From an uncultured Clostridia bacterium (GTDB lineage Bacteria > Bacillota > Clostridia > Oscillospirales > Ruminococcaceae), in the NCBI GenBank assembly GCA_947629905.1, contig CANRFM010000008.1, positions 5,811-69,810 of the forward strand: a stretch of 64,000 nt of DNA. Reading direction: 5' to 3'. Each line of letters begins with the position of its first letter. Position 1 is the first letter of the stretch. The notes under the pieces are model-generated. The model worked only from the letters and a program-made list of their open reading frames with translations, was not told where the DNA came from and did no database searches. Below are positions 4,004 through 56,407 of the stretch, in pieces. The position numbers and the translations under genes are program-made.

Positions 4004-4783
4004 ATGGACGGTACAAGTATTTTAATGGCAGCAGGCATCGGTGTTGCTGCACTGCTGACTTTCGGGGGCGGAATGATGATTTCCGAAGCAAAACGCTCTG
4101 AAAAGGTACAGCCGGATGAAAAGAAAGAGACGGCTGAAAAGACTGGCATGGGAAAGGGCATACTCCTGCCGGCAGCAGCATTGATGCTGGCAGCCTCTCT
4201 GGCGTTCGGGGAATTGCTGGTCGGTCAGGCAGACCGGACAGAGGATATATCCAACACACTGGAATTGACAACGGAAGCTCCTACGGAAGCCCCCACAGAA
4301 GCACCAACAGAGCCGCCTACAGAACCCCCGACAGAGCCGCCAACAGAAGCACCAACGGAACCGCCGCTCCCCTCTTTGGCGGATGCGCCGACCGTATTGA
4401 TTCCGCTTGAAGCCATGCTCGATACATATAATGAAAAGACCGGAAACTACACGGGTGGTTTCCTTTGCCCCATGTATGCGGATGAAACGATCAGCATTAA
4501 CGGATTCTGGGAAGACTATACGGGACCTGAAGTCCTGACGATCCCTTTGAAAAACGGGGATTATATCGTGAGGTCAGTAGACATCTTTTTTCTGGCAAAA
4601 TGGGATGGCATTTCTGTCATCCGCATCCCGGAGGGGATGCAGTTCACTAATCGGAGAAAGATAGTATCACCGGAACAGGCAAAGTCCTATTTTGCACAAA
4701 AAGGTATCACCATGGAGTATTATGATCCGGCGCAGGAGTCGGCATCCACGGAAAGCAGCGCAGATGCAGATCCGGCAAATTAA
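4004..4783 (+). CDS. Membrane-anchored surface protein, cassette type B copy 2
   Basis: The N-terminus MDGTSILMAAGIGVAALLTFGGGMM is as in 1835-3169. It has a PTE linker and a single domain ending FAQKGITMEYYDP. Confidence 0.75.
   Translation: MDGTSILMAAGIGVAALLTFGGGMMISEAKRSEKVQPDEKKETAEKTGMGKGILLPAAALMLAASLAFGELLVGQADRTEDISNTLELTTEAPTEAPTEAPTEPPTEPPTEPPTEAPTEPPLPSLADAPTVLIPLEAMLDTYNEKTGNYTGGFLCPMYADETISINGFWEDYTGPEVLTIPLKNGDYIVRSVDIFFLAKWDGISVIRIPEGMQFTNRRKIVSPEQAKSYFAQKGITMEYYDPAQESASTESSADADPAN
4268..4366 (+). repeat. 12-nt-period coding repeat (TEAP/TEPP linker)
   Basis: Encodes TTEAPTEAPTEAPTEPPTEPPTEPPTEAPTEPP. Confidence 0.8.
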
Positions 4784-29986: not shown

Positions 29987-30301
29987 ATGGAACAAAAAAC
30001 GAAACTGGTTCTGGACGGGCTGGAGAAGCTTGCTTTCGGGCGTGTCAACGATGCAGTGCGGCTTGCCTTTGCGGATGAGATGCCGTCGCAGGCGGTGCTG
30101 TCCCGGATGAATCTGTTTAACGTTTCCTCGATCAAGCGGGTCAAGGGCGGCGGTGTGGAAATTCAGTTCTTCGACAGGCAGAAGGCACTGGAAAAGCTGT
30201 ACGACTTTGCCCATGCGGGGGAAAACGGCGCTGCGGCGGAAAGTCTCCTCGAAGCGCTGACGGGGGAGGATGCGGATGCGGTTCAGCAGGTTCTCCCCTA
30301 A
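29987..30301 (+). CDS. Phage terminase small subunit-like
   Basis: AAGGGGG lies upstream of the ATG at 29987. The protein is ~105 aa, and its end motif VEIQFFDRQKALEKLYDF resembles the conserved C-terminal block of small terminases. It is positioned upstream of terL. Confidence 0.55.
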   Translation: MEQKTKLVLDGLEKLAFGRVNDAVRLAFADEMPSQAVLSRMNLFNVSSIKRVKGGGVEIQFFDRQKALEKLYDFAHAGENGAAAESLLEALTGEDADAVQQVLP

Positions 30302-31526
30302 ACAAAAGCTCTGCCTGAAATGGTGGGCGATGCCGGAACTGCGGCAGTATGATGCGCTGATCTGTGACGGGGCAGTCCGCAGCGGCAAGACGCTTGCGAT
30401 GTCGCTGGGGTTTCTGTTCTGGGCGCAGGCTTGTGCGGACGGAGGGACGTTTGCGCTATGCGGTAAGACCATAACTTCCCTGCGGCGGAATGTCGTCCGT
30501 CCGCTTCAGGCGGTGCTGGAGGACTGCGGCTTTGATGTGCGGGAGAGGGTGAGCAAGAATTACCTCGATGTGACGGCGTTCGGGCACTGCAACCGGTTTT
30601 ACCTGTTCGGGGGGAAGGATGAAAGCTCGGCGGCGCTCATTCAGGGGATGACGCTGGGGGGCGTGTTCTTTGATGAAGTCGCTCTGATGCCACGTTCCTT
30701 TGTGGAACAGGCGATCGCACGGTGTTCGGTACGGCAGGCGAAGCTCTGGTTCAACTGCAATCCGGAGCACCCCTATCACTGGTTCTACCGGGAATGGATC
30801 TGCAAAGCGAAAGAAAAGCGTGCCCTGCACCTGCACTTCACCATGGAGGACAATCCCTCTCTGCTGGAGAGTGTAAAAGCACGCTACCGGAGAATGTACG
30901 GGGGGATGTTCTATGACCGCTTTGTCCTCGGCAAATGGACTGCACCGACAGGGCTGGTCTATCCGATGTTCGATGCAAGGCGGCACGTGACAAATGAGCT
31001 GCCGGAACGGTGTGACAGGTATGTGATCTCCTGCGACTACGGAACGATCAATCCTACTTCCATGGGACTGTGGGGCGAATCGGGCGGAGTCTGGTACAGG
31101 CTGCGGGAATACTACTATGCCGCAAGGAAAGAGGGCATTTCCCGTACCGATGAGCAGCACTATGCGGGGCTGGTACAACTCGCAGGGGAATTTCCGGTGG
31201 AGTGCGTCATTGTGGATCCGTCGGCGGCAAGCTTCATTGCGTGCATTGCGGCGCACAGGCAGTTCCGGGTCATTCCGGCTGACAATGCTGTGCTGACGGG
31301 GATCCGGCAGGTGAGTGAAGCCCTGCAGCAGGACAGGCTGCGGTTCTCGGCGGGGTGCAGCGACATCCTGCGGGAGTTCGGGCAGTATTGCTGGAAAGAG
31401 GACAGCGCCGGGGATGTTCCGAAAAAAGAAAACGACCATGCGATGGATGATATGCGCTATTTTGTCAGCACCATGCTGCATGGCACACAGAAAGAGGATT
31501 TTGTGGCGATCACAGTCGGGAGGTGA
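30270..31526 (+). CDS. Phage terminase large subunit (PBSX-type)
   Basis: Walker A is DGAVRSGKTLAMS and Walker B is GVFFDEVALM. The C-terminal nuclease block is DHAMDDMRYF. The gene overlaps terS by 32 nt. Confidence 0.85.
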   Translation: MRMRFSRFSPKQKLCLKWWAMPELRQYDALICDGAVRSGKTLAMSLGFLFWAQACADGGTFALCGKTITSLRRNVVRPLQAVLEDCGFDVRERVSKNYLDVTAFGHCNRFYLFGGKDESSAALIQGMTLGGVFFDEVALMPRSFVEQAIARCSVRQAKLWFNCNPEHPYHWFYREWICKAKEKRALHLHFTMEDNPSLLESVKARYRRMYGGMFYDRFVLGKWTAPTGLVYPMFDARRHVTNELPERCDRYVISCDYGTINPTSMGLWGESGGVWYRLREYYYAARKEGISRTDEQHYAGLVQLAGEFPVECVIVDPSAASFIACIAAHRQFRVIPADNAVLTGIRQVSEALQQDRLRFSAGCSDILREFGQYCWKEDSAGDVPKKENDHAMDDMRYFVSTMLHGTQKEDFVAITVGR

Positions 31527-31529
31527 CAT

Positions 31530-32678
31530 ATGCGATTCGGAAAGAAAAAAGAAAAGCTGCCGCTGCCGCAGGTGCAGACGGCAGCAAGAGAGCAGCTCTG
31601 TGAAACACCGGTACAGCTTTACAGCTATGCCTTGTTTGACAAGGTGCGGCGGACTGTGCCGATCGTGGATGCGGCGCTCTCGAAACTGGTGCGGCTGATC
31701 GGGTCATTTACCGTCAAATGCGGTGATGCTGCTCAACAGGCAGGGTTAGACCACTTTCTGCAGGAAGTACCGGTGGGGCTGACGGGGCAGTCGATCTACA
31801 GCTTTATTGACTGCTATTTAGACAGTCTTTTGGTCTGCGGCAATGCGGTCGGGGAAATTGTTCCCGGCAAGGGAAACCGCTGTATTGCCGGGCTGTGGAA
31901 CGGCAATGCTGCGGACATTATCGTCCGCCCCGGTGCTGCACCGCTCGAACGGCAGTACCTGCTGCGCACGCCGGACGGGGAACAGCTGCTCCCGCACCCG
32001 GAACGGATCCTGTTTTCTGCTTTGAAACCGCCGCCGGGCGGCATTTACGGGGTATCTGTCTTACAGGGGCTGCCGGTGTTTGCAGATATTCTGCTGCGCA
32101 TTTATGAATGCGTGGGGCAGAACTTCGACAGGGCTGGCAATATCCGCTATGCGGTGACGTATAAGCCGTCCGGTGATCCGACGGAGGCTGCCTATGCGGC
32201 TGACCGGGCGAAAACCATTGCACGGGAATGGTCGGAGGGGATGCAGGCTGCCCGGCGGGGGGAGATACGGGATTTTGTTTCAGTCGGGGATGTGGACATT
32301 AAGGTGATCGGCGCTGAGGGGTCGATGCCGGACACGGAAATACCTGTCCGGCAGCTCCTCGAACAGATGCTGTCAAAGCTCTCTGTACCGCCGTTTCTGC
32401 TCGGGCTGAGCTGGTCCTCGACGGAACGGATGTCGGCGCAGCAGGCGGATATTCTCACTTCGGAGCTGGAATATTACCGGAGACTGCTTGAGCCGGTCAT
32501 CTGCCGCATTGCACAGGCGTATTTGCAGCTTTCAGGCACTTACACGACAGTCGAAGTCGTGTGGGACAATATCAATTTACAGGATGAAGTGGAGCTTGCA
32601 AGGGCAAGACTCTACAACGCACAGGCAGCAGAGGCGGAACAGGCACTCTCTGCCGTACAGCAGAAGGAGGAATTGTAA
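31530..32678 (+). CDS. Phage portal protein
   Basis: The protein is 382 aa and lies immediately after terL. GGGAGG is the SD. The call rests on size and position, and the sequence feel is consistent with HK97-type portals. Confidence 0.65.
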   Translation: MRFGKKKEKLPLPQVQTAAREQLCETPVQLYSYALFDKVRRTVPIVDAALSKLVRLIGSFTVKCGDAAQQAGLDHFLQEVPVGLTGQSIYSFIDCYLDSLLVCGNAVGEIVPGKGNRCIAGLWNGNAADIIVRPGAAPLERQYLLRTPDGEQLLPHPERILFSALKPPPGGIYGVSVLQGLPVFADILLRIYECVGQNFDRAGNIRYAVTYKPSGDPTEAAYAADRAKTIAREWSEGMQAARRGEIRDFVSVGDVDIKVIGAEGSMPDTEIPVRQLLEQMLSKLSVPPFLLGLSWSSTERMSAQQADILTSELEYYRRLLEPVICRIAQAYLQLSGTYTTVEVVWDNINLQDEVELARARLYNAQAAEAEQALSAVQQKEEL

Positions 32679-33643
32679 TGTACAACGAAACAAAACTCGA
32701 AAAGGGACTGTATCACCTTGCGAACAAGAGCTTTTTGCAGGCGCTCGAAGAGGCAGACCCGGATGTGCAGTATGCGGGTACACCGCTCGGAAAGCTCGAT
32801 GCCTATGAACGGCAGCTCAAGCGGTTTGACATTCGTGTCAGCGGTCCGCTGTGTGACAGGGTGGAGAAATTCTTTACCACAACGGAAAGCGCCGTGCTGT
32901 TTCCGGAATTCGTGCGCAGGGCTGTGATGCAGGGCATGGAGGATTCTGTGCTCGGAGACATTACGGCTGTAGTCTCCCGCAGTGAGTCGAACCGCTATCA
33001 GGGTATTGATCTGACGGATACGGCTGCCTATACGACGACAAATGCCGGGGTGGAAATGCCGGCTTCTTCCATCGGGGAATGCACGGATGCGATCACCCTC
33101 ACGAAATATGGCAGACTTGTCAAGGCGACCTATGAGGCTGTCCGTCAGCAGAGACTGGATGTGTTCGCTCTCATGCTGCGCAGGGTCGGAAAGTGTTTGG
33201 CGGATGCGATGCTTTCTGCGGCTTTGAACGTCCTGAAAACCGGGGCAACTTCCGTAACGACTGCCGCTTCAACGCTGACTTATGGGGATGTTGCGGGGCT
33301 GTACGGGAGTTTCAAGAGCTTTTCTTTGCAGGCGGTGCTGGCTTCTCCGGCGGTCATTGCGCAGATCTTGGCTATGACGCAGATGGAGCATACGAGTGCA
33401 GCGGATGCCAAAGACCTGCGCCTGCCGTTCGGGGCAAGGCTGATCTGCTGTCCGCAGCTGGACGACAAGACGGTGCTTGGGCTGGATACGGATTTTGCGC
33501 TGGAGCAGATCCAGAGCAGTGATGTGGTTCTGGAGACGGACAAGCTCATTGACAGACAGCTTGACTGCATTGGCATTTCTGTGAATATCGGCTTCCGCAG
33601 ACTGATGAAGGATGCGGTGCAGGTCGTGACCATTCAGGCGTAA
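32678..33643 (+). CDS. Major capsid protein-like (HK97 fold type, no obvious delta domain)
   Basis: There is a TAATG overlap with the portal gene. The block ITLTKYGRLVKATYEAVRQQRLDVFALMLRRVGKCLADAMLSAAL resembles the conserved MCP core pattern. Confidence 0.55.
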   Translation: MYNETKLEKGLYHLANKSFLQALEEADPDVQYAGTPLGKLDAYERQLKRFDIRVSGPLCDRVEKFFTTTESAVLFPEFVRRAVMQGMEDSVLGDITAVVSRSESNRYQGIDLTDTAAYTTTNAGVEMPASSIGECTDAITLTKYGRLVKATYEAVRQQRLDVFALMLRRVGKCLADAMLSAALNVLKTGATSVTTAASTLTYGDVAGLYGSFKSFSLQAVLASPAVIAQILAMTQMEHTSAADAKDLRLPFGARLICCPQLDDKTVLGLDTDFALEQIQSSDVVLETDKLIDRQLDCIGISVNIGFRRLMKDAVQVVTIQA

Positions 33644-33687
33644 GCGGGGCGGGGGCTTTTGCTCCCGTCTCCGGAAAGGAGGCAGCT

Positions 33688-34491
33688 ATGACGGACATGG
33701 AAAAGCTGAACCGCTTTACACGGCGGGCGCTCACGGAGGAGGAGGTCTATCTCTTTGATGTGATCCTCTGTGACAATGATGTGGACAGGGATATGGAACG
33801 GTTTTCTGATGCGGCTTTAGAGCAGATGCAGAAGCTCTTTGTCGGGAAAACGGGGATCTTCGATCACAATATGCGCTCCGTGGGACAGACGGCTCGCATT
33901 TATGATGCGGCTGTTGTGAAAGAACCGGACAAGCGCACGAAAGACGGCAGGACTTACTGTTCGCTCCGGGCGAAAGCCTATATGGTGCGCACGGACTCGA
34001 ATGCTGACCTGATCCGGGAAATCGAGGGCGGTATCAAGAAAGAGGTCAGCGTTTCCTGCTCGGCAGCAAAGCGTATTTGCTCCGTCTGCGGGGCTGACAG
34101 GGCGCAGGCTGTCTGTGCGCACGTGCCGGGCAGGACGTATGGCGACAAGTTCTGTCATACGATCTTAGATGATGTGCAGGATGCGTATGAATGGAGCTTT
34201 GTGGCAGTGCCGGCGCAGGTCGGGGCAGGTGTTACCAAACATTTCAGCGGAAAGGAGAATGACGGCATGGAACAGGTACAGGAGACTTTGCAGGAAGTAG
34301 AAAAAATGCTCCGGGCGGAGGTACTCAACCTTTGCGGCGGAACGGGGACGGTTTCAAAGGCGATGCAGCTTGCAGCAGAAAAAATGGACGTGCGGGAGCT
34401 GATGCAGTTCCGGCAGGCGCTGCTTGCTTCGGAAACGGCAGAGAATGTGCAGCTTGCGGGGGCGCAGCTCGATGCTTTTGTGCAGAGATAA
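33688..34491 (+). CDS. Prohead protease-like / scaffold-like protein
   Basis: LFDVILCDNDVDRDMERFSDAAL...GIFDHN...EVSVSC...EWSFVAVPAQ resembles the S78 prohead protease layout. It has a Cys cluster CSVCGADRAQAVCAH and a helical acidic C-terminus. Confidence 0.45.
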   Translation: MTDMEKLNRFTRRALTEEEVYLFDVILCDNDVDRDMERFSDAALEQMQKLFVGKTGIFDHNMRSVGQTARIYDAAVVKEPDKRTKDGRTYCSLRAKAYMVRTDSNADLIREIEGGIKKEVSVSCSAAKRICSVCGADRAQAVCAHVPGRTYGDKFCHTILDDVQDAYEWSFVAVPAQVGAGVTKHFSGKENDGMEQVQETLQEVEKMLRAEVLNLCGGTGTVSKAMQLAAEKMDVRELMQFRQALLASETAENVQLAGAQLDAFVQR

Positions 34492-34503
34492 GGGGGACTG
34501 GGT

Positions 34504-34857
34504 TTGAATATTCAGATGATCAGTTCGCTGTTTGTGCTTTTTTCCGGTGAGACGGACAGCAGACGGTATTTGCCGCTGATCACGGCTGCGGTATATGAAG
34601 TGATGCAGCAGCTGCGCCCGGAAGTGGACGGTTCGGAGGCAAGGCTCTGCTATCTGGCGGCGGCGGTGGCTAATCTTCGCTATGTGCAGATGTTCGGGGC
34701 AAGGGAATCGGCGCTGGCGACCTATGCGGGGAATGTCACGAGAAATTCGGACTTTTCCCCTGCCCGCTTTGCGAAACAGCTTGTGCTTTCCTACAGGCGG
34801 CTCTGTGCGGACTTGCTGAAAGAAGAGGATTTTGTATTTACTGGCGTCAGGGGGTGA
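34504..34857 (+). CDS. Small phage-module protein (possible head-tail adaptor)
   Basis: TTG start 7 nt after AAGGGGGA. The protein is 117 aa. The call rests on position after the head genes only. Confidence 0.4.
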   Translation: MNIQMISSLFVLFSGETDSRRYLPLITAAVYEVMQQLRPEVDGSEARLCYLAAAVANLRYVQMFGARESALATYAGNVTRNSDFSPARFAKQLVLSYRRLCADLLKEEDFVFTGVRG

Positions 34858-35269
34858 GGGCTTGCTGGCATTGACGGAACAAGTGGTCGGACACCTGAAA
34901 GCGGCTGGGCTGCGGGAGGTCTATCCTGCCTTTGATGCTGTGCCGTTTTCACGCAAATCGCAGACACTTTTTACGGTCATTACACCGGAAGCCATACAGC
35001 TCGATCTCCCTTTCCCTGACAACAGGGGGGATGTCCGTCCGTTTACGGCACGGTTCCGTGCTTCGGTGCTGATCCCGATGGGCTCACCGGTGCAGTGGGC
35101 GGAGGATTTCTTTTACGAAAAACTGCTGCCGTATCTGGAGCAGATGGGCAGCGTACTGTGTGAGATCCATGCACCGCAGACAGATATTGCACTGGGGCGT
35201 GTGGTGTTTGCGGCATCGTTCCGGCTGCGGGGAATGTATATCGATGACGGAGAGGGGGGCGCACTATGA
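34832..35269 (+). CDS. Small phage-module protein (possible head completion/neck)
   Basis: The ORF is tightly packed with its neighbours. The start is uncertain; an alternative TTG at 34862 follows GGGGTGAGG. Confidence 0.4.
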   Translation: MYLLASGGEGLLALTEQVVGHLKAAGLREVYPAFDAVPFSRKSQTLFTVITPEAIQLDLPFPDNRGDVRPFTARFRASVLIPMGSPVQWAEDFFYEKLLPYLEQMGSVLCEIHAPQTDIALGRVVFAASFRLRGMYIDDGEGGAL

Positions 35270-35658
35270 GCTTGCAATTACGGCAGATGCAGGATATTCC
35301 GTTACTGGTCAATGATATTCTGCTGCGCCTGACGGACTATGCTATTACGGGCGGCTGTCTGGTGCGGGAAGAGGGTACGGCAGAGGGAACGGCAGTGATC
35401 ACTGCCTGCTACCCCAAAGGCACAAGGCTGACACTGAAGGGCAGACTGACGGACATGAACACGGACACGGCAAAAACGGCAGCGGCACTCGATGACATTC
35501 TGCATAGCGGTTCGGCTTGTAAGGTGACGATCGGGGCGCTGCACTGCAGTGAACTGCGGCTGGTGGGGTATGCACTTTCCGGGGGAGAAGATTTCCCGGT
35601 GCTGAAGCTGGTGTTCTACACGCAGGCGGCGCTTACGGAGATGACAGAATGGAACTGA
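35266..35658 (+). CDS. Small phage-module protein, unknown
   Basis: The protein is 130 aa, with an ATGA overlap with the upstream ORF. Confidence 0.4.
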   Translation: MSLQLRQMQDIPLLVNDILLRLTDYAITGGCLVREEGTAEGTAVITACYPKGTRLTLKGRLTDMNTDTAKTAAALDDILHSGSACKVTIGALHCSELRLVGYALSGGEDFPVLKLVFYTQAALTEMTEWN

Positions 35659-36575
35659 CACTGCGGCTGTATGCGGGGGACAGCTATACGGATGAGCACA
35701 CGTGTATCGGGCTTTCCCTCGAACGGGAAGCGTATACGCCATATACGCAGCTTTCGGCTTTGTTTCTTTCTACAGCGCCGGACGGGTATGGGGCAGTCAG
35801 CCGGATAGAACTGCTTTGGGGGGATGTGCTCCTGTGCTGCGGGACAACAGACCTTGTGGACTGTTATTGGAAAGACGGCGCACGTCTGGTGCGGGTGCGC
35901 TCCCGGAGTTTTACGGCGGCACTGCTGCAAAATGAATTTCCGCAGGGGATGTATACGAATATCACCTTTGCGCAGCTGATGACGGATTTCTGTCAGATGC
36001 CGCACGTCACCTACGAAAACGAAACACGCACCAATTATATTGCCGTCAAAGAGGGGACGACTGCATGGGACTGCGTGGTGGCATTCGGCTATAAGCTGAC
36101 AAATCACTACCCCTATATCGTGGACAACTGTGTGATGCTCAGTCCGCCGGCTGCGCCGGTGCTGCATACGGTCGATGCTGCACAGGTGACGGCTTACGGG
36201 GAGACGGCTGACTCGACAAGGATCATCAGCCATTATCACATGGAAGAAATAGACGGCACGCCGAATGCCTATGAATCGGTAAATGCTGCGGCGGCGGCTT
36301 CGGAGATCGTGCGGCACAAGCAGATCACCTTTGACAGGCAGTTTGCCTATTTCCCGATGCAGGCACTATCGTTCCGGAATGCCTATTCCTGCCGGCAGAG
36401 CAGGTCGAAATACCTTGTCTACAACGGCTTTGGCAATGAGCAGATCGGGGACAAGGTCAGCTTCGGGGCATTTATGGACAATATGACGATCAGCCGGGTA
36501 CTGCTCACGGTCGGGCAGCAAGGTGTCCGTACCAAGCTGTGGGCGTATCAGGATGAATTTTATAATACGAAATAG
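35649..36575 (+). CDS. Phage-module protein, unknown (308 aa)
   Basis: This is the last ORF of the module and overlaps the upstream ORF by 10 nt. No motif was recognised. Confidence 0.45.
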   Translation: MELTLRLYAGDSYTDEHTCIGLSLEREAYTPYTQLSALFLSTAPDGYGAVSRIELLWGDVLLCCGTTDLVDCYWKDGARLVRVRSRSFTAALLQNEFPQGMYTNITFAQLMTDFCQMPHVTYENETRTNYIAVKEGTTAWDCVVAFGYKLTNHYPYIVDNCVMLSPPAAPVLHTVDAAQVTAYGETADSTRIISHYHMEEIDGTPNAYESVNAAAAASEIVRHKQITFDRQFAYFPMQALSFRNAYSCRQSRSKYLVYNGFGNEQIGDKVSFGAFMDNMTISRVLLTVGQQGVRTKLWAYQDEFYNTK

Positions 36576-52154: not shown

Positions 52155-54128
52155 ATGCCAGATAGACACATACATATTGCTGTCATTGTATCAACGATCG
52201 ACGAGGAATACCAGAGCGGCATCCTCAGAGGCATTCGGCAGTTTGCCTTTGCCAACAATATCACCCTCGATCACTTTGTCGCTTTCGGCAATATCGGGAG
52301 CGACATCCGGCACGATACGGGGGAGTATAATATTTTCTCCCTTGCCGATTTTTCCCGGTTTGACGGCGTGATACTCGTCATCAATACCATTCAGTTTGCC
52401 GATTGTCTGGAGCGTGTACTCGAACGGGTGCGGGCTTCCGGCATTCCGGCAGTCTGCATTGACAAGAATGTTGCCGGGTTCTATTATATTGGTATCGACA
52501 ACGAAATGGCAATGCACGCTATGGTGGAGCATTTCATCGTCAAGCACGGCTTTGAGCGCATCAATTTCATTTCCGGACCGGCGGATAATATTGACAGCGT
52601 ACAGCGCCTGAAAGCCTACAAGGAAGTACTGACGCAGCACGGCATTCTCGTGGAGGAGGAGCGCATCTATCACGGGCGGTTCGTTTCACGGGACGGTGTG
52701 GATGCCGTGCAGAAATTCATGAACTCTGACCTCGAAATGCCGCAGGCAATCGTCTGCGCCAATGACACGATGGCAATTGCTGCCGTCAGTGCTTTGATGC
52801 ACCATGGGGTGCGTGTGCCGGAGGATGTGGCAGTTTCCGGGTTTGACTACATCTACAATGCCCGGAACTATGCGCCCTCGCTGACATCCGTGGAACGTCC
52901 GCTCGAACGGGTCGGACAGCTTGCGTGTCAGAAGATTTTGAATCACCTTGACGGCAAACCGCAGGAGCGGGAATCTATGCTTGACATTTTCTGCCGGTTC
53001 TCTCAGAGCTGTGGCTGCTGTGAAGCACCCATCATGGATGCGGATGAATTCAAGCGGCGGAACTTCACGGTACTGGAATCGTTCTCGGATGATGTTTCAC
53101 TGGCAAGCCGTCTCTCGTCCTCTTTGGCGGAGTGCGATAATTTAGAGGAATTTGTGGAGAATCTGCGGTATTTCATTCCGGATTTTCACTGCAAGGAGTT
53201 CTACCTCTGCCTGTGCGACAGTTGGCGGCACGGCGTGACGGACGAGCAGGAAGAACGCTATCCTGTCCCGGTGCTTTCGGCGAATGATTACATCGTAAAC
53301 GGCTACGGGGAGCGCATTGTTGTGCCGCTTGCCTACCGGAACGGGCGGTTTTACGATATGCCGGACTTTGCGGCAGAGGAGATGCTGCCGGGAATGTTTG
53401 ACGAAAAAAGCGAAACGGGGAATTATTACTTCGTCCCGCTGCATTTCCGGGAACGGTGCATGGGGTACTGTGTCATCAAGGACAGCAATTTCCCTACCAG
53501 CAGCAAGCTGTTTCACAACATTGTCATGGACATTGCCAATTCCCTCGAAAGTGTGCGCAAAATTGTGCGGCTGGACAAGGTGACCCAGAACCTCAACCGG
53601 CTGTACACGATAGACCCGCTTGCCGGCATCAACAACCGGAACGGCTTCCGCATCGACACCAGTCAGCTCTACAGCTACTGCATGGAAGCACAGAAGCCGG
53701 TGATGCTGATGTTCCTCGACATGGACGGGCTGAAACGTATCAACGACACGTTCGGTCACAAGGCGGGCGATGCTGCCATTATGGGCATGGCGGAAGCCAT
53801 CAAGCGTGCCTGCACGGGCGGTGAGGTCTGCTGCCGGTTCGGCGGGGATGAGTTCATCATCTTTGCGGCGGACTACACGGAAGAACAGGCGCAGTCGCTC
53901 TCCGAGCGCATCCTCGAATGTCTGGAGAGCCTGAATGCCGAAAGGCAGCTGCCCTACAAACTGGCTGCCTCGTTAGGGTTTCATATCACTGTACCCGAAC
54001 CGGGAACGAATCTGTTCCAGCTTGTGACGGTCGCTGACAACATCATGTATGCTGCCAAAAAGAAGAAGAAGACCTCCCGCTACCTGAAACACGGGAAGAA
54101 CGGGGAAACGGATACGGATACGGAATGA
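52155..54128 (+). CDS. Diguanylate cyclase with N-terminal LacI-type (periplasmic-binding-protein fold) ligand domain, no HTH
   Basis: The N-terminus reads IAVIVSTIDEEYQSGILRGI...CANDTMAIAAVSAL...VSGFD (sugar-binding fold). The C-terminus reads NRNGF...DMDGLKRINDTFGHKAGD...FGGDEFIIF. Confidence 0.8.
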   Translation: MPDRHIHIAVIVSTIDEEYQSGILRGIRQFAFANNITLDHFVAFGNIGSDIRHDTGEYNIFSLADFSRFDGVILVINTIQFADCLERVLERVRASGIPAVCIDKNVAGFYYIGIDNEMAMHAMVEHFIVKHGFERINFISGPADNIDSVQRLKAYKEVLTQHGILVEEERIYHGRFVSRDGVDAVQKFMNSDLEMPQAIVCANDTMAIAAVSALMHHGVRVPEDVAVSGFDYIYNARNYAPSLTSVERPLERVGQLACQKILNHLDGKPQERESMLDIFCRFSQSCGCCEAPIMDADEFKRRNFTVLESFSDDVSLASRLSSSLAECDNLEEFVENLRYFIPDFHCKEFYLCLCDSWRHGVTDEQEERYPVPVLSANDYIVNGYGERIVVPLAYRNGRFYDMPDFAAEEMLPGMFDEKSETGNYYFVPLHFRERCMGYCVIKDSNFPTSSKLFHNIVMDIANSLESVRKIVRLDKVTQNLNRLYTIDPLAGINNRNGFRIDTSQLYSYCMEAQKPVMLMFLDMDGLKRINDTFGHKAGDAAIMGMAEAIKRACTGGEVCCRFGGDEFIIFAADYTEEQAQSLSERILECLESLNAERQLPYKLAASLGFHITVPEPGTNLFQLVTVADNIMYAAKKKKKTSRYLKHGKNGETDTDTE

Positions 54129-54140
54129 ATCAAGCAAAGG

Positions 54141-54222
54141 TCGGCGCAGAGCCTGCGCTCCCGTTTTGCCTCCCAATGCGCCTGACGGCGCAAAGGTCGG
54201 CTTGCATGACTGATAGTGCAGT
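54141..54222. repeat. Structured ~82-nt repeat, copy 1
   Basis: Hairpin A gcgcag-agc-ctgcgc (54144-54158), then gcctcccaatgc, hairpin B gcgcc-tgac-ggcgc (54178-54191), then aaaggtcggcttg...tagtgcagt. Confidence 0.75.
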
Positions 54223-54237
54223 ATCAAAATAGTGACA

Positions 54238-54268
54238 GGACGCCCTGAATCGGGGCGTCCTTTATTTC
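54238..54268 (+). terminator. Rho-independent terminator candidate downstream of the cyclase gene
   Basis: ggacgccc-tgaatcg-gggcgtcc is followed by tttatttcc. Confidence 0.6.
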
Positions 54269-54290
54269 CGTCGCATTTCACGACGGAAAT
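54264..54290. other. 10-bp perfect hairpin whose 5' arm is the preceding terminator's T-tract
   Basis: The sequence is atttccgtcg-catttca-cgacggaaat. Confidence 0.6.
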
Positions 54291-54361
54291 GCAATTCAGG
54301 TAGATGAGGTCGGTAAAATCGACCCCACAGGGGCGCAGGGGTATGAACCAGATTCACACCC

Positions 54362-54444
54362 TTCCGGCAGGCTGCCGGCTCCGTGGTGCCTCCCAATGCC
54401 GCCTGACGGCGGCAAAGGTCGGCTTGTTCGGTTGGTAGTGCAGT
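54362..54444. repeat. Structured ~82-nt repeat, copy 2
   Basis: Hairpin A ccggcag-g-ctgccgg (54364-54378), then gcctcccaatgc, hairpin B gccgcc-tgac-ggcggc (54398-54413), then aaaggtcggcttg...tagtgcagt. Confidence 0.75.
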
Positions 54445-54462
54445 TTAGGGGGCATACACTGT

Positions 54463-54790
54463 GGCGTATGGTATACGCCATTGCTATACGCCCGTTTTGG
54501 CTATTTATAGCCAATCATACGCCCATACGCCTAAAAAGCAAGTTGTCCTTATATTGATACCACACGTGCAGTGCACAGCCTTTGCACGCCACCTGCACAC
54601 GCCTGTTTTGGCTATGTATAGGGCTTTGCACGTCTGCACGCCTTTTTTCTTTGTTGCTATTATATATATATTATACTACCGTACCATGTACACCCTGCTG
54701 TACACCCTGATGAACGTCTGTTTTTTGCTGTATATAGCCATTGGTACGCCGGTACGCCTTTTGGGCTTGTTGTCCTTATATATACTGTAC
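54463..54790. repeat. Three tandem ~100-115-bp units with a common scaffold but unit-specific 8-mer words
   Basis: Each unit has 2 upstream words, gtttt + GGCTAT-N-TATAGCC-like palindrome, 2 abutting words, a T-run, then (c)ttgttg(t/c)c(c)ttatata. The abutting words are catacgcc x2 (54516-54531), tgcacgtc/tgcacgcc (54627-54642) and ggtacgcc x2 (54743-54758). Confidence 0.75.
54562..54790. repeat. Left arm of long inverted repeat (units 2-3)
   Basis: The reverse complement of 55111-55366 aligns here. By hand alignment, identity is roughly nine positions in ten over 54595-54790 and weaker over 54562-54594. Confidence 0.8.
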
Positions 54791-55057
54791 TATATTTTTT
54801 CAACCATACTGTTTCTATTAAAATCAAATAAAATATATCTGTATTTCTATGATAACATGAAACTTATCCATAGAATGGACATATTTTTATCCAGTTACAA
54901 TAGAAAAAAGTATAAAACTGCCAAAATGACAGTTTTGCAATACCCGAAAGGGTGTAACTCTAATGGACACCCTTTGACGGAATACAAAGCTCCACAACAA
55001 AATAATATCGAGTTTTAACAAAACGTTAAAAGTCATATTAAAAAAATATATCAGTCG

Positions 55058-55080
55058 GTATACCCTGAATCGGGGTATAC
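55058..55080. other. Hairpin with the same loop as the 54238 terminator but a swapped stem
   Basis: gtataccc-tgaatcg-gggtatac versus ggacgccc-tgaatcg-gggcgtcc. Confidence 0.6.
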
Positions 55081-55110
55081 TTAGGCTAATGTCATGAAAT
55101 GCGGCGGCAG

Positions 55111-55366
55111 GTATAGTATATATAAGGACAACAAGCCCGAAAGGCGTACCGGCGTACCAATGGCTATAATACGTACTTTCTGCCCGTTCAACAAGGTGTA
55201 CAGCAGGGTGTACATGGTACGGTAGTATAATATATATATATATATATATATATAATAGCAACAAAGAAAAAAGGCGTGCAGGCGTGCGAATGGCTATACA
55301 CAGCCAAAACAGGCGTGTGCCGATGCCGTGCGCAGGTAAAAATGACGTGCATCTGCACGTGTAACA
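55111..55366. repeat. Right arm of long inverted repeat (inverted units 3'-2')
   Basis: See the left arm. This arm is longer because of the (TA)12 run. Confidence 0.8.
55231..55254. repeat. (TA)12 microsatellite
   Basis: tatata... runs from 55231 to 55254. The homologous site in the left arm (54661-54670) is (TA)5. Confidence 0.9.
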
Positions 55367-55398
55367 CACACTGCATTGCTGCTTTTTTCAAAAAACAC

Positions 55399-55427
55399 TT
55401 GACAAACGCTCCGAAATGTGATATACT
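55399..55427 (+). promoter_or_regulatory. Sigma-A promoter candidate for cysK
   Basis: TTGACA (55399-55404), a 17-nt spacer, then TATACT (55422-55427) with an extended TGa. Confidence 0.65.
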
Positions 55428-55480: not shown

Positions 55481-56407
55481 ATGAAAGTTTTTCATTCTTT
55501 TACGGAACTGGTAGGAGGTACGCCGCTGCTGGAGCTGACGCACCTCGAAAAGGCAAACGGTCTGGAGGCGACTGTCCTCGGCAAGCTTGAATACTTCAAC
55601 CCCGCCGGGTCGGTCAAGGACAGAGTAGCCGTTGCCATGATCGAGGATGCAGAGGCAAGGGGCGTGCTCAAAAAGGGCAGCGTCATCATCGAACCGACCA
55701 GCGGTAACACCGGGATCGGGCTTGCGGCTGTGGCTGCGGCTCGGGGCTATCGGCTGATCATCACCATGCCGGAAACGATGAGCATCGAGCGCCGCAACCT
55801 GATGAGAGCCTACGGGGCAGAACTCGTGCTGACAGAGGGCGCAAAGGGCATGAAAGGCGCAATCGCCAAGGCGGAGGAGCTTGCCAAGGAGATCCCGGAC
55901 AGCTTCATCCCGTCCCAGTTCTCCAACCCTGCCAACCCTGCCATCCACCAGAAAACGACCGGCGTGGAGATCTGGAACGATACGGACGGCAAGGTCGCTA
56001 TTCTCGTTGCCGGGGTCGGCACGGGCGGCACGATCAGCGGCGCAGGGGCTTACCTGAAATTCCAGAACCCTGATATTAAAATTGTTGCCGTTGAACCGGC
56101 AAGCTCTCCTGTACTCTCCAAGGGGACTTCCGGACCGCATAAAATTCAGGGCATCGGTGCGGGTTTCGTGCCGGACACGCTGAATACGGACATTTATGAC
56201 GAAATCATCCCGGTCGTGAATGAGGATGCCTTTGCTGCCGGGCGTGCCGTTGCCAGAAGTGAGGGCGTACTGGTCGGCATTTCCTCCGGTGCGGCTGTAT
56301 GGGCTGCCATAGAGCTTGCCAAACGCCCCGAAAACAAGGGAAAAATCATCGTCGCTGTCCTGCCGGACACGGGTGAACGCTATCTTTCCACACCGATGTT
56401 CGACTGA
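55481..56407 (+). CDS. cysK: Cysteine synthase A (O-acetylserine sulfhydrylase)
   Basis: GGAG lies upstream of the ATG at 55481. Motifs are [24 protein letters not shown] and [10 protein letters not shown]. Confidence 0.9.

Follow-up and report, generated by a model that had tools for sequence, protein, structure and literature searches.

We analysed a 64,000-nucleotide stretch of a Ruminococcaceae contig (CANRFM010000008.1; the whole stretch is hereafter the window) that carries an array of short repeated words in a 1.35-kb non-coding gap, with a GGDEF gene upstream and a cysK-type gene downstream. An earlier note, made from the letters alone, had described three tandem units in this gap. 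All the word positions it gave are correct on a check against the sequence (the tandem-repeat finder rows at 54516, 54687 and 54743 agree) and the three units are present, but the real total is five, with two more on the - strand. The order is U1, U2 and U3 on the + strand, a 340-bp AT-rich centre, then U3' and U2' on the - strand, and the two sets of units converge on the centre. The locus reads as follows.

52155-54128, + strand: periplasmic-binding/GGDEF gene, upstream neighbour of the array
54463-54553, + strand: U1 (AT class), with the inverted word ggcgtat (54463-54469), spaced words tatacgcc (54472 and 54485), gtttt plus GGCTATTTATAGCC (54494-54512), two abutting catacgcc (54516-54531, starting at 54516 and 54524), the A-tract taaaaag and the tail GTTGTCCTTATA (54542-54553)
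54563-54664, + strand: U2 (GC class), opening with the palindrome cacgtgca-g-tgcac, then spaced words tgcacgcc (54583) and tgcacacgcc (54594), gttttGGCTATGTATAGGG, abutting tgcacgtc (54627) and tgcacgcc (54635) at 54627-54642, a T-run and the tail GTTGCTATTATA (54653-54664)
54679-54780, + strand: U3 (GT class), opening with ccgtacc, then two spaced words tgtacaccc (54687, 54699) plus tgaacgtc, ttttttGCTGTATATAGCC, two abutting ggtacgcc (54743-54758, starting at 54743 and 54751), a T-run and the tail GTTGTCCTTATA (54769-54780)
54781-55120, no strand: AT-rich centre, 340 bp, 24-31% GC by composition
55222 to 55121, - strand: U3' (GT class), an inverted copy of U3, 96-97% identical
55360 to 55251, - strand: U2' (GC class), an inverted copy of U2, 88% identical, opening with the palindrome ACGTGCAGATGCACGT
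55399-55427: the cysK-type gene's own promoter, TTGACA-17-TATACT (promoter scan)
55481-56407, + strand: cysK-type gene, downstream neighbour of the array

The units follow a conserved frame of ~100 bp that consists of a palindromic site, two spaced words, an A/T tract plus palindrome, two abutting words, a second A/T tract and a TATA-rich tail. Each contains 4-5 words and starts with an inverted word or a palindrome (ggcgtat, acgtgca-g-tgcac, ccgtacc). The abutting words are exactly 8 bp apart in all units found; based on the coordinates, the spaced words of the window units are ~12-13 bp apart and the last of them precedes the first abutting word by 31-32 bp. The scaffold had been called identical between units. 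A common frame is indeed there, but identity between the window units is only 60-75%, the palindrome is imperfect in U2 and U3, and U1 carries TAAAAAG at the place where the other window units carry a T-run.

Likewise, the words do differ from unit to unit, though not as wholly different 8-mers. They fit the formula R-Y-ACGCC, in which the core ACGCC is constant and only the two preceding bases vary (AT, GC and GT in the window), and they occur in both orientations. We counted 15 RYACGCC words within 54463-55318, plus degenerate ones, compared to ~0.5 per kb elsewhere. A 35-nt search frame taken from the window units (ACGYC-N3-ACGCC-N10-GTTG-N3-TTATA) has 5 matches in the window, where 0.01 are expected by chance.

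Searching for the scaffold elsewhere, as the earlier note had proposed, reveals a dispersed family. A scan of 185,579 species genomes (596 Gb) with the 35-nt frame returned 15 stretches, of which nine contain true units and six are chance matches inside genes. The nine true loci, referred to below by L numbers as are other sequences outside the window, come from Clostridia, Ruminococcus and Oscillospiraceae metagenome-assembled genomes (MAGs); one of the nine is on a scaffold binned as Alistipes. The units form back-to-back pairs of ~200-208 bp in L001, L003 and L013, a face-to-face pair in L015 and a tandem array in L005, and are single elsewhere. All four R-Y combinations are in use across the family. 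We found no protein common to the neighbourhoods of the loci; most neighbours are housekeeping genes (pyrG/glnA, bipA/sipL, uppP/glmS, tagF-like).

The agreement of words within a unit holds in this wider family. In 19 of 21 units the two abutting words are of one kind, and the upstream words match them in 53% of cases compared to 21% after permutation, a level that none of 10000 permutations reached. This is a strong rule with exceptions, as L003 and L006 mix word classes. In the two units of L001, the words are conserved and the spacers have diverged.

On three metagenome or MAG contigs (L013, L028 and L030), the same back-to-back pair separates a tyrosine integrase gene from a divergent SNF2-helicase/HNH gene. 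In L028, the integrase gene adjoins RHS/PT-HINT toxin and DUF4241 genes. The strict pattern has 0 matches in viral contigs, and nearly all matches of a relaxed pattern in metagenomes are chance matches, with the exception of L028 and L030, which are of the L013 type. Comparison of the region with plasmids and phages by blastn gave no match, and a literature search by the repeat sequence strings and for P4 crr returned nothing usable.

Across diverse elements, the constant partner of such arrays is a putative replication initiator gene, which we call rep. In L003, the genes are ordered CHC2 primase, 472-aa gene, unit pair, small gene and large serine recombinase, and a tail of the back-to-back pair overlaps the stop codon of the 472-aa gene. 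By domain search, the 472-aa protein is a P4-family primase C-terminal/DUF5906 helicase (TIGR01613), and its only PDB match is 7OLA/7OM0, the PriRep5 protein of the Staphylococcus aureus pathogenicity island SaPI5 (E 4e-7 over the helicase domain). The words of this array are GATACGCC and GGTACGCC, and it matches the same 35-nt pattern as the window units.

A close counterpart is carried by the Ruminococcus albus 7 megaplasmid pRUMAL02 (L048). Its Rep is 78% identical to that of L003, the two diverging most in the last ~40 residues, and the gene order is as in the L003 locus: relaxase, CHC2 primase, P4-family primase, gap, small genes, serine recombinases. The array is colinear with the units, with two spaced words, an A/T tract, a palindrome, two abutting words, an A/T tract and a tail:

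NC_014825.1 268542-268777: L048 array, words AGACACC/GGTGTCTT, unannotated, in an integrative element and immediately behind its P4-family primase gene

Arrays with other words are found right after the rep stop in human-gut and viral contigs. Two gut contigs deposited as 'Bacteriophage sp.' carry CCGTACAC (L049) and AGTGCCTA around a 90-bp AT-rich stretch (L050). Two IMG/VR contigs carry, after rep, six AACACGCAT, a 100-bp AT-rich stretch and three inverted words, convergent as in the window (L132), and 'tatttaaacaac tcgcaaaaac GGCGTGTA GGCGTGTA ... TACACGCC TACACGCC aaaaatt' (L054). The latter has only the minimal core of the scaffold, namely a reverse-complemented tail, a 10-nt A-tract and two abutting word pairs, and its word is of the AC class.

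The words of the rep-linked arrays are thus element-specific (AGACACC, ACACGCC, GTACGCA, AACACGCAT, AGTGCCTA). At 42 distinct IMG/VR loci, RYACGC occurs 7.5 times per kb in the 200 nt after rep compared to 1.4 per kb elsewhere, a five-fold enrichment, and a 7-mer is present at least four times after rep in 10 of 29 IMG/VR loci and in none of the coding controls. In distant Rep homologues (down to ~40% identity) the arrays keep the post-stop position and have other words. The genes downstream vary: recombinase genes follow in L003 and L048 and, by eye, genes with a ParM-like and a Mob/Pre-like N-terminus follow the arrays of L054 and L062, respectively. The word changes with the Rep variant. 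This and the scaffold directly 3' of rep genes in L003 and pRUMAL02 support the earlier suggestion of iteron or operator modules for related sequence-specific binders.

Next, we compared the locus between strains and close relatives. Two relatives (L043 and L044) keep the gene order RNase R-secG-Zn-ribbon-GGDEF-cysK and have a GGDEF-cysK gap of only 181 bp. Their cysK is 95% identical, and the flanks show 90% nucleotide identity up to 54119 and from 55382. Three parts make up the short gap: a hairpin of caaaggtcg with a T-run, a hairpin of gcagcgtgacgctgc, and a module of tgcctccca, ccggcaggctgccg and a T-run. A partial X module thus belongs to the native GGDEF terminator region of these relatives. 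Orthologous GGDEF loci at 73% identity have other neighbours and no comparable gap. The block and its accessory repeats, the REP-like X modules (REP, repetitive extragenic palindrome), are:

54120-55381, no strand: lineage-specific block, 1262 bp, replacing 88 bp of terminator-like hairpins
54133-54222, + strand: X1, REP-like module, an accessory repeat of the inserted block
54364-54444, + strand: X2, second REP-like module, directly upstream of U1
54903-54998, - strand: conserved core of the AT-rich centre, two hairpins then a U-run
L043 3760-4010 and L044 3211-3461: empty site
L002 1850-1893, 4068-4194 and 7293-7355; L004 ~262-315; L036 6966-7042: X-module copies

X1 consists of caaaggtcggc, a hairpin, tgcctccca, a hairpin cgcctgacggcg and caaaggtcggcttg..tagtgcag. 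The general X pattern (tgcctccca, short GC hairpin, caaaggtcggcttg..tagtgcag) is 88-97% identical between species; the 8 kb of L002 contain it at three separate intergenic positions, and L004 and L036 have copies too. X2 plus U1 is ~78% identical to a composite in L002, the odd TAAAAAG included, and the middle part of U3', acgggcagaaagtacgtattatagcc, matches the unit type of L004.

Three short metagenome contigs of the same lineage (L039, L040 and L041) were retrieved via a spurious open reading frame (ORF) spanning the units. L039 is the same as the window. L040 (1020 nt), compared with window positions 54270-55350, has 54459-55350 reversed relative to the left flank; the junction at 54375 (cacaccctt/ggggaagggtgcagtgtg) is outside any repeat, and the contig ends before the far junction. 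The orientation of the block therefore probably differs between strains, with some uncertainty because this is a single contig of 3x coverage that may be misassembled. L041 has two units, the centre and two opposed units, of the AT and AC classes. Between its U2 and that of the window, scaffold and tail are identical (0 differences in 51 nt, counted on the alignment), and the palindrome and both abutting words have changed jointly from TGCACG to TACACG. Inside the U2' tail lies a (TA)15 microsatellite (55226-55254), a tract that is much shorter in L040 and L041.

The core of the AT-rich centre is conserved between the window and L041, whereas the centre flanks diverge. On the - strand it contains a terminator-like stem (54936 to 54914, terminator scan) and folds better than shuffled sequence (z -3.2 in the window, -3.85 in L041); one G to A substitution between the two gives a G.U pair on that strand only. 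A promoter-like TTAACG-16-TATTAT lies upstream at 55029 to 55002. The core has no Rfam match. Judged from these sequence features, it may be a ~90-nt small RNA or a set of origin hairpins. Small ORFs in the centre were rejected, as they are without a ribosome-binding site and not conserved in L041.

By analogy with the rep-linked arrays, we propose that the units are iteron-type origin or Rep-binding modules of P4-family primase-helicase elements of Ruminococcus and Oscillospiraceae, and put the probability of this reading at roughly 60%. The initiator would be a P4-family primase-helicase (TIGR01613/DUF5906), homologous to SaPI5 PriRep5, of small integrative or satellite-like elements, and its C-terminal DNA-binding part would read the 7-8-bp words through the core ACGCC and the specificity bases R-Y. 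Each module would offer it one palindromic site, two words that are spaced and two that abut. Easily melted DNA, at which two opposed initiator assemblies could open the duplex, would be supplied by the A/T tracts and by the TATA-rich tail or centre. The R-Y bases and larger word changes (e.g. AGACACC) would set which initiator is accepted, and different words in a constant frame would correspond to different initiator specificities or to subfamilies descended from them.

For an orphan copy such as that of the window, any action would have to be in trans: the Rep of a resident or incoming element might fire it as an origin or be titrated by it. It might also be a leftover whose units selection or gene conversion still keeps alike. 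Simple decay of the orphan array is hard to reconcile with its intact abutting pairs and conserved scaffold, although gene conversion between the inverted arms might have the same effect. Given the variation among L039-L041 and the unit matches to L002 and L004, we therefore consider the locus a fast-changing stack of origin-type modules detached from the initiator.

The earlier note had stated that no described element has such a layout. This was too strong: SaPI-type origins and those of other phage-inducible chromosomal islands (PICIs) are described relatives, as are P4-type origins. In SaPI origins, six to twelve penta- or hexanucleotide iterons lie immediately downstream of rep, with an AT-rich region near the middle and at least two iterons per side in opposite directions (PMC9371898). 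The SaPI/PICI initiators Rep1 and PriRep5 are self-loading initiator-helicases, and SaPI Rep specificity resides in the C-terminal winged helix (PMC9371898). The family described here likewise has short, element-specific iterons in two opposite sets around an AT-rich stretch, an array directly after the rep stop (L003, L048, L049, L050, L054 and L132) and, in L003, a Rep that is a remote homologue of PriRep5 (7OLA). The window array has as many iterons as such origins (six to twelve or more), and its three + and two - units flank the AT-rich region at 54781-55120.

It differs in location, with GGDEF and cysK as neighbours instead of a cognate rep directly upstream. Further differences are that the family words are 7-8 bp long with a common ACGCC core and are set in the longer ~100-bp frame, and that the window copy has five modules, three word classes and a 340-bp centre. 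Measured against the arrays of L003 and pRUMAL02, the five window units share the colinear frame with L003, in alignments that include L048, and they share the kind of word, as seen in GATACGCC/GGTACGCC of L003, in TACACGCC of L054 and in the RYACGC enrichment after rep.

Other replicons offer partial parallels. The alpha primase-helicase of P4 binds octamer iterons (TGTTCACC) present in several copies and in both orientations, and a second iteron cluster away from the gene, crr, acts in cis at a distance, on the same replicon and a few kb from ori. The initiator of the rep-linked relatives is of the P4 family (TIGR01613), whereas the window array lies in chromosomal housekeeping DNA without a surrounding element, and words and frame are unrelated to those of P4. 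In iteron plasmids, extra iteron arrays (e.g. P1 incA) titrate or handcuff Rep without being an origin. As clusters of Rep-binding repeats, these are the nearest precedent for a rep-less array; they differ in that plasmid iterons are 17-22 bp long, lie about two helical turns apart on the rep plasmid itself and have a single specificity. A classical iteron-plasmid origin (17-22-bp iterons at ~22 bp, an adjacent rep of the RepA, pi or RepE type, DnaA boxes) does not describe the window array, because its words are 7-8 bp long at 8- and 12-13-bp spacing, no rep is present and no plasmid matches by blastn.

We conclude that the SaPI/P4 kind of origin gains new members in the rep-linked arrays. 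The array of the window is not filed with them because it is not adjacent to rep, although it would work in the manner of such an origin or of a Rep-binding array; it is best called an orphan, multi-class, convergent array in housekeeping DNA. Its layout is explained by known biology; a rep-less, strain-variable stack of several specificities is unexpected.

Several observations weigh against the proposed reading. Searches by tblastn for homologues of rep, pri and the recombinase found none in the 64-kb window or in the 8-kb stretches around six other copies, and cis origin function is therefore excluded at these copies. The RYACGCC-type copies found are mostly located between housekeeping genes, and their binder may be another protein, encoded by the host. 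The link to SaPI is a remote helicase-domain match plus analogy. The L003 array mixes GAT and GGT, and that of L048 mixes AGACACC and ATACACC; because word classes are mixed in some rep-linked arrays, words that vary at R-Y may be acceptable to a single Rep, and the 'specificity classes' would then be a mark of descent alone. The same intergenic DNA possibly has a second role, as it precedes other genes in several elements: by eye, a ParM-like gene in L054, a Mob/Pre-like gene in L062, and a small gene followed by a recombinase in L003.

One alternative is that the units are a selfish dispersed intergenic repeat without host function, a mosaic like miniature inverted-repeat transposable elements (MITEs), REPs or bacterial interspersed mosaic elements (BIMEs), with the rep-adjacent copies as further insertions. 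BIMEs and REPs are mosaics of short dispersed intergenic modules downstream of genes and vary between strains, and the X modules next to the units behave alike. The units also sit at unrelated intergenic sites with no neighbouring protein in common, form back-to-back pairs of constant ~200-208 bp with inverted TATAATAGCAAC...GTTGCTATTATA ends, co-occur with the dispersed X modules, are missing from the empty site of close relatives and differ in content and orientation between strains. However, they are not simple palindromes, are tied to rep elsewhere and, as far as the scan and the window show, have a low copy number, with one matching stretch per genome in the scan and one locus in the 64-kb window. 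There is no clean target duplication, no transposase is associated or nearby, and the inverted symmetry of L013 runs past its 'ends'. Conservation of words while spacers diverge in L001 is not expected of such a repeat, and random insertion does not explain the constant position directly after the rep stop. We regard this alternative as unlikely.

We assign a similarly low probability to arrays that bind another protein, either a ribbon-helix-helix (RHH) centromere or operator protein or a host transcription factor, with the tails as regulated promoters. The RHH partition proteins ParG and omega use centromeres of unspaced short repeats. That of pCXC100 ParB likewise consists of nine unspaced 9-bp repeats (PMC3074162), and unspaced 8-bp direct repeats are typical of such binders. 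RHH centromeres and the units have in common abutting 7-9-bp repeats, direct and inverted, of plasmid-specific sequence; those centromeres lie upstream of parA/parB operons, whereas the units have rep as their constant neighbour instead of a par or regulator gene, and no more than two of their words abut.

As for promoters, nearly every tail contains a -10-like TATAnT hexamer by eye. The L003 tail points at the small gene before the serine recombinase, with an ATG ~33 nt downstream, other tails point at an AbrB-like gene (L007) and at the gene with a ParM-like N-terminus (L054), all three recognised by eye, and the L013/L030 pair is flanked by int and the helicase gene with tails towards the gene starts. 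Yet about as many tails face convergent gene 3' ends (L001 on both sides, L002, the rep side of L003, L005). Sigma-70 promoters in the tails were rejected, as the promoter scan called none and the -35 is poor by eye and not usable, and the tails have no convincing fit by eye to the consensus sequences of sigma-54, extracytoplasmic-function (ECF) or sporulation sigma factors.

The earlier note had also raised structured RNA modules, which are not supported. Tandem small-RNA genes or terminators, in which the same-sense words would base-pair with the inverted word and transcription would stop at the T-run, seem to us very improbable. Support comes from the T-runs that follow words, from a terminator scan call in U1 (GGCGTATGGTATACGCCATTGCTATACGCC+CGTTTT), from the fold of U2, in which the 5' inverted word pairs with the last words (z -2.2), from the match between acgtgca to acgtgta and TGCACG to TACACG when the window is compared with L041, and from the well-folded hairpin pair plus U-run in the centre. 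A dimeric protein that binds palindromic half-sites accounts for this covariation too. Single-unit folds on both strands are otherwise unremarkable (z -0.3 to -2.2 overall; U1 and U3 no better than shuffles), RNAalifold finds 0 consensus pairs in the 21-unit alignment, and neither Rfam at a permissive threshold nor a tRNA scan has a match in the region. The units face either way relative to neighbouring genes. Tract polarity also varies, with AAAC before the palindrome and TAAAAAG or TTAAAT after the abutting words, and many of the 'T-runs' are A-runs, as suits a tract that matters in the DNA and not a terminator U-tract. Because there is no consensus RNA structure and tract polarity flips, we conclude that the array acts at the DNA level.

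Other candidates were rejected as well. A search for a dif/Xer site gave no match. For a replication terminus, the GC-skew change at ~36 kb follows gene orientation and is 18 kb away. Integrase arm sites do not fit, since the pair of L013/L030 is placed inward of int and an integrase is absent from the majority of loci.

Elsewhere in the window, positions 30270-36575 hold a phage head-module remnant (large terminase, portal, capsid), at the start of which GC jumps from ~43% to 58%; no integrase or replication genes were found among the ORFs scanned. A long + strand cluster in positions 1-30000 includes genes for a TadZ-like receiver-domain protein, a type II/IV secretion ATPase and a dockerin-bearing transglutaminase-like protein, as well as two genes above 1400 aa. 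The dockerin is in keeping with a source of Ruminococcus type. Several genes in this region contain in-frame tandem repeats of 12-48 nt (consensus e.g. GACAGAAGCGCC; 1269-1365, 2141-2238 and 4269-4366).

Finally, the rep-less array might be a working device instead of debris, although we find this distinctly unlikely. As a stack of iteron modules with several specificities, it would trap the initiators of satellite or integrative elements, whether resident or newly arriving. If so, Rep titration would block replication of the element, that is, incompatibility would serve as host defence; alternatively, it would fire as an in-trans origin, so that the chromosome next to it is amplified and ends up in phage particles. 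The fast turnover between strains, with units swapped, words co-changed and the block flipped, would then be the trace of an arms race.

If the units are origin-type modules of P4-family elements, as we propose, they would constitute an origin and initiator-recognition code (R-Y-ACGCC and relatives in a fixed frame) for a widespread and unstudied family of primase-helicase elements of gut Ruminococcus and Oscillospiraceae, relatives of which turn up in human-gut 'Bacteriophage sp.' contigs and in IMG/VR viral contigs. The pRUMAL02 array, present in the cultured strain R. albus 7, would be an accessible experimental model for this origin family. The word class would be a simple sequence handle for matching elements to hosts in metagenomes, and a practical lesson would be that a regulatory operator or an RNA is not the only explanation for dispersed modules of short repeats. 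Origin modules would also live without their initiator gene in chromosomal intergenic DNA, intact and strain-variable, and such orphan arrays could affect the range of mobile elements able to replicate in a host, or permit local over-replication.

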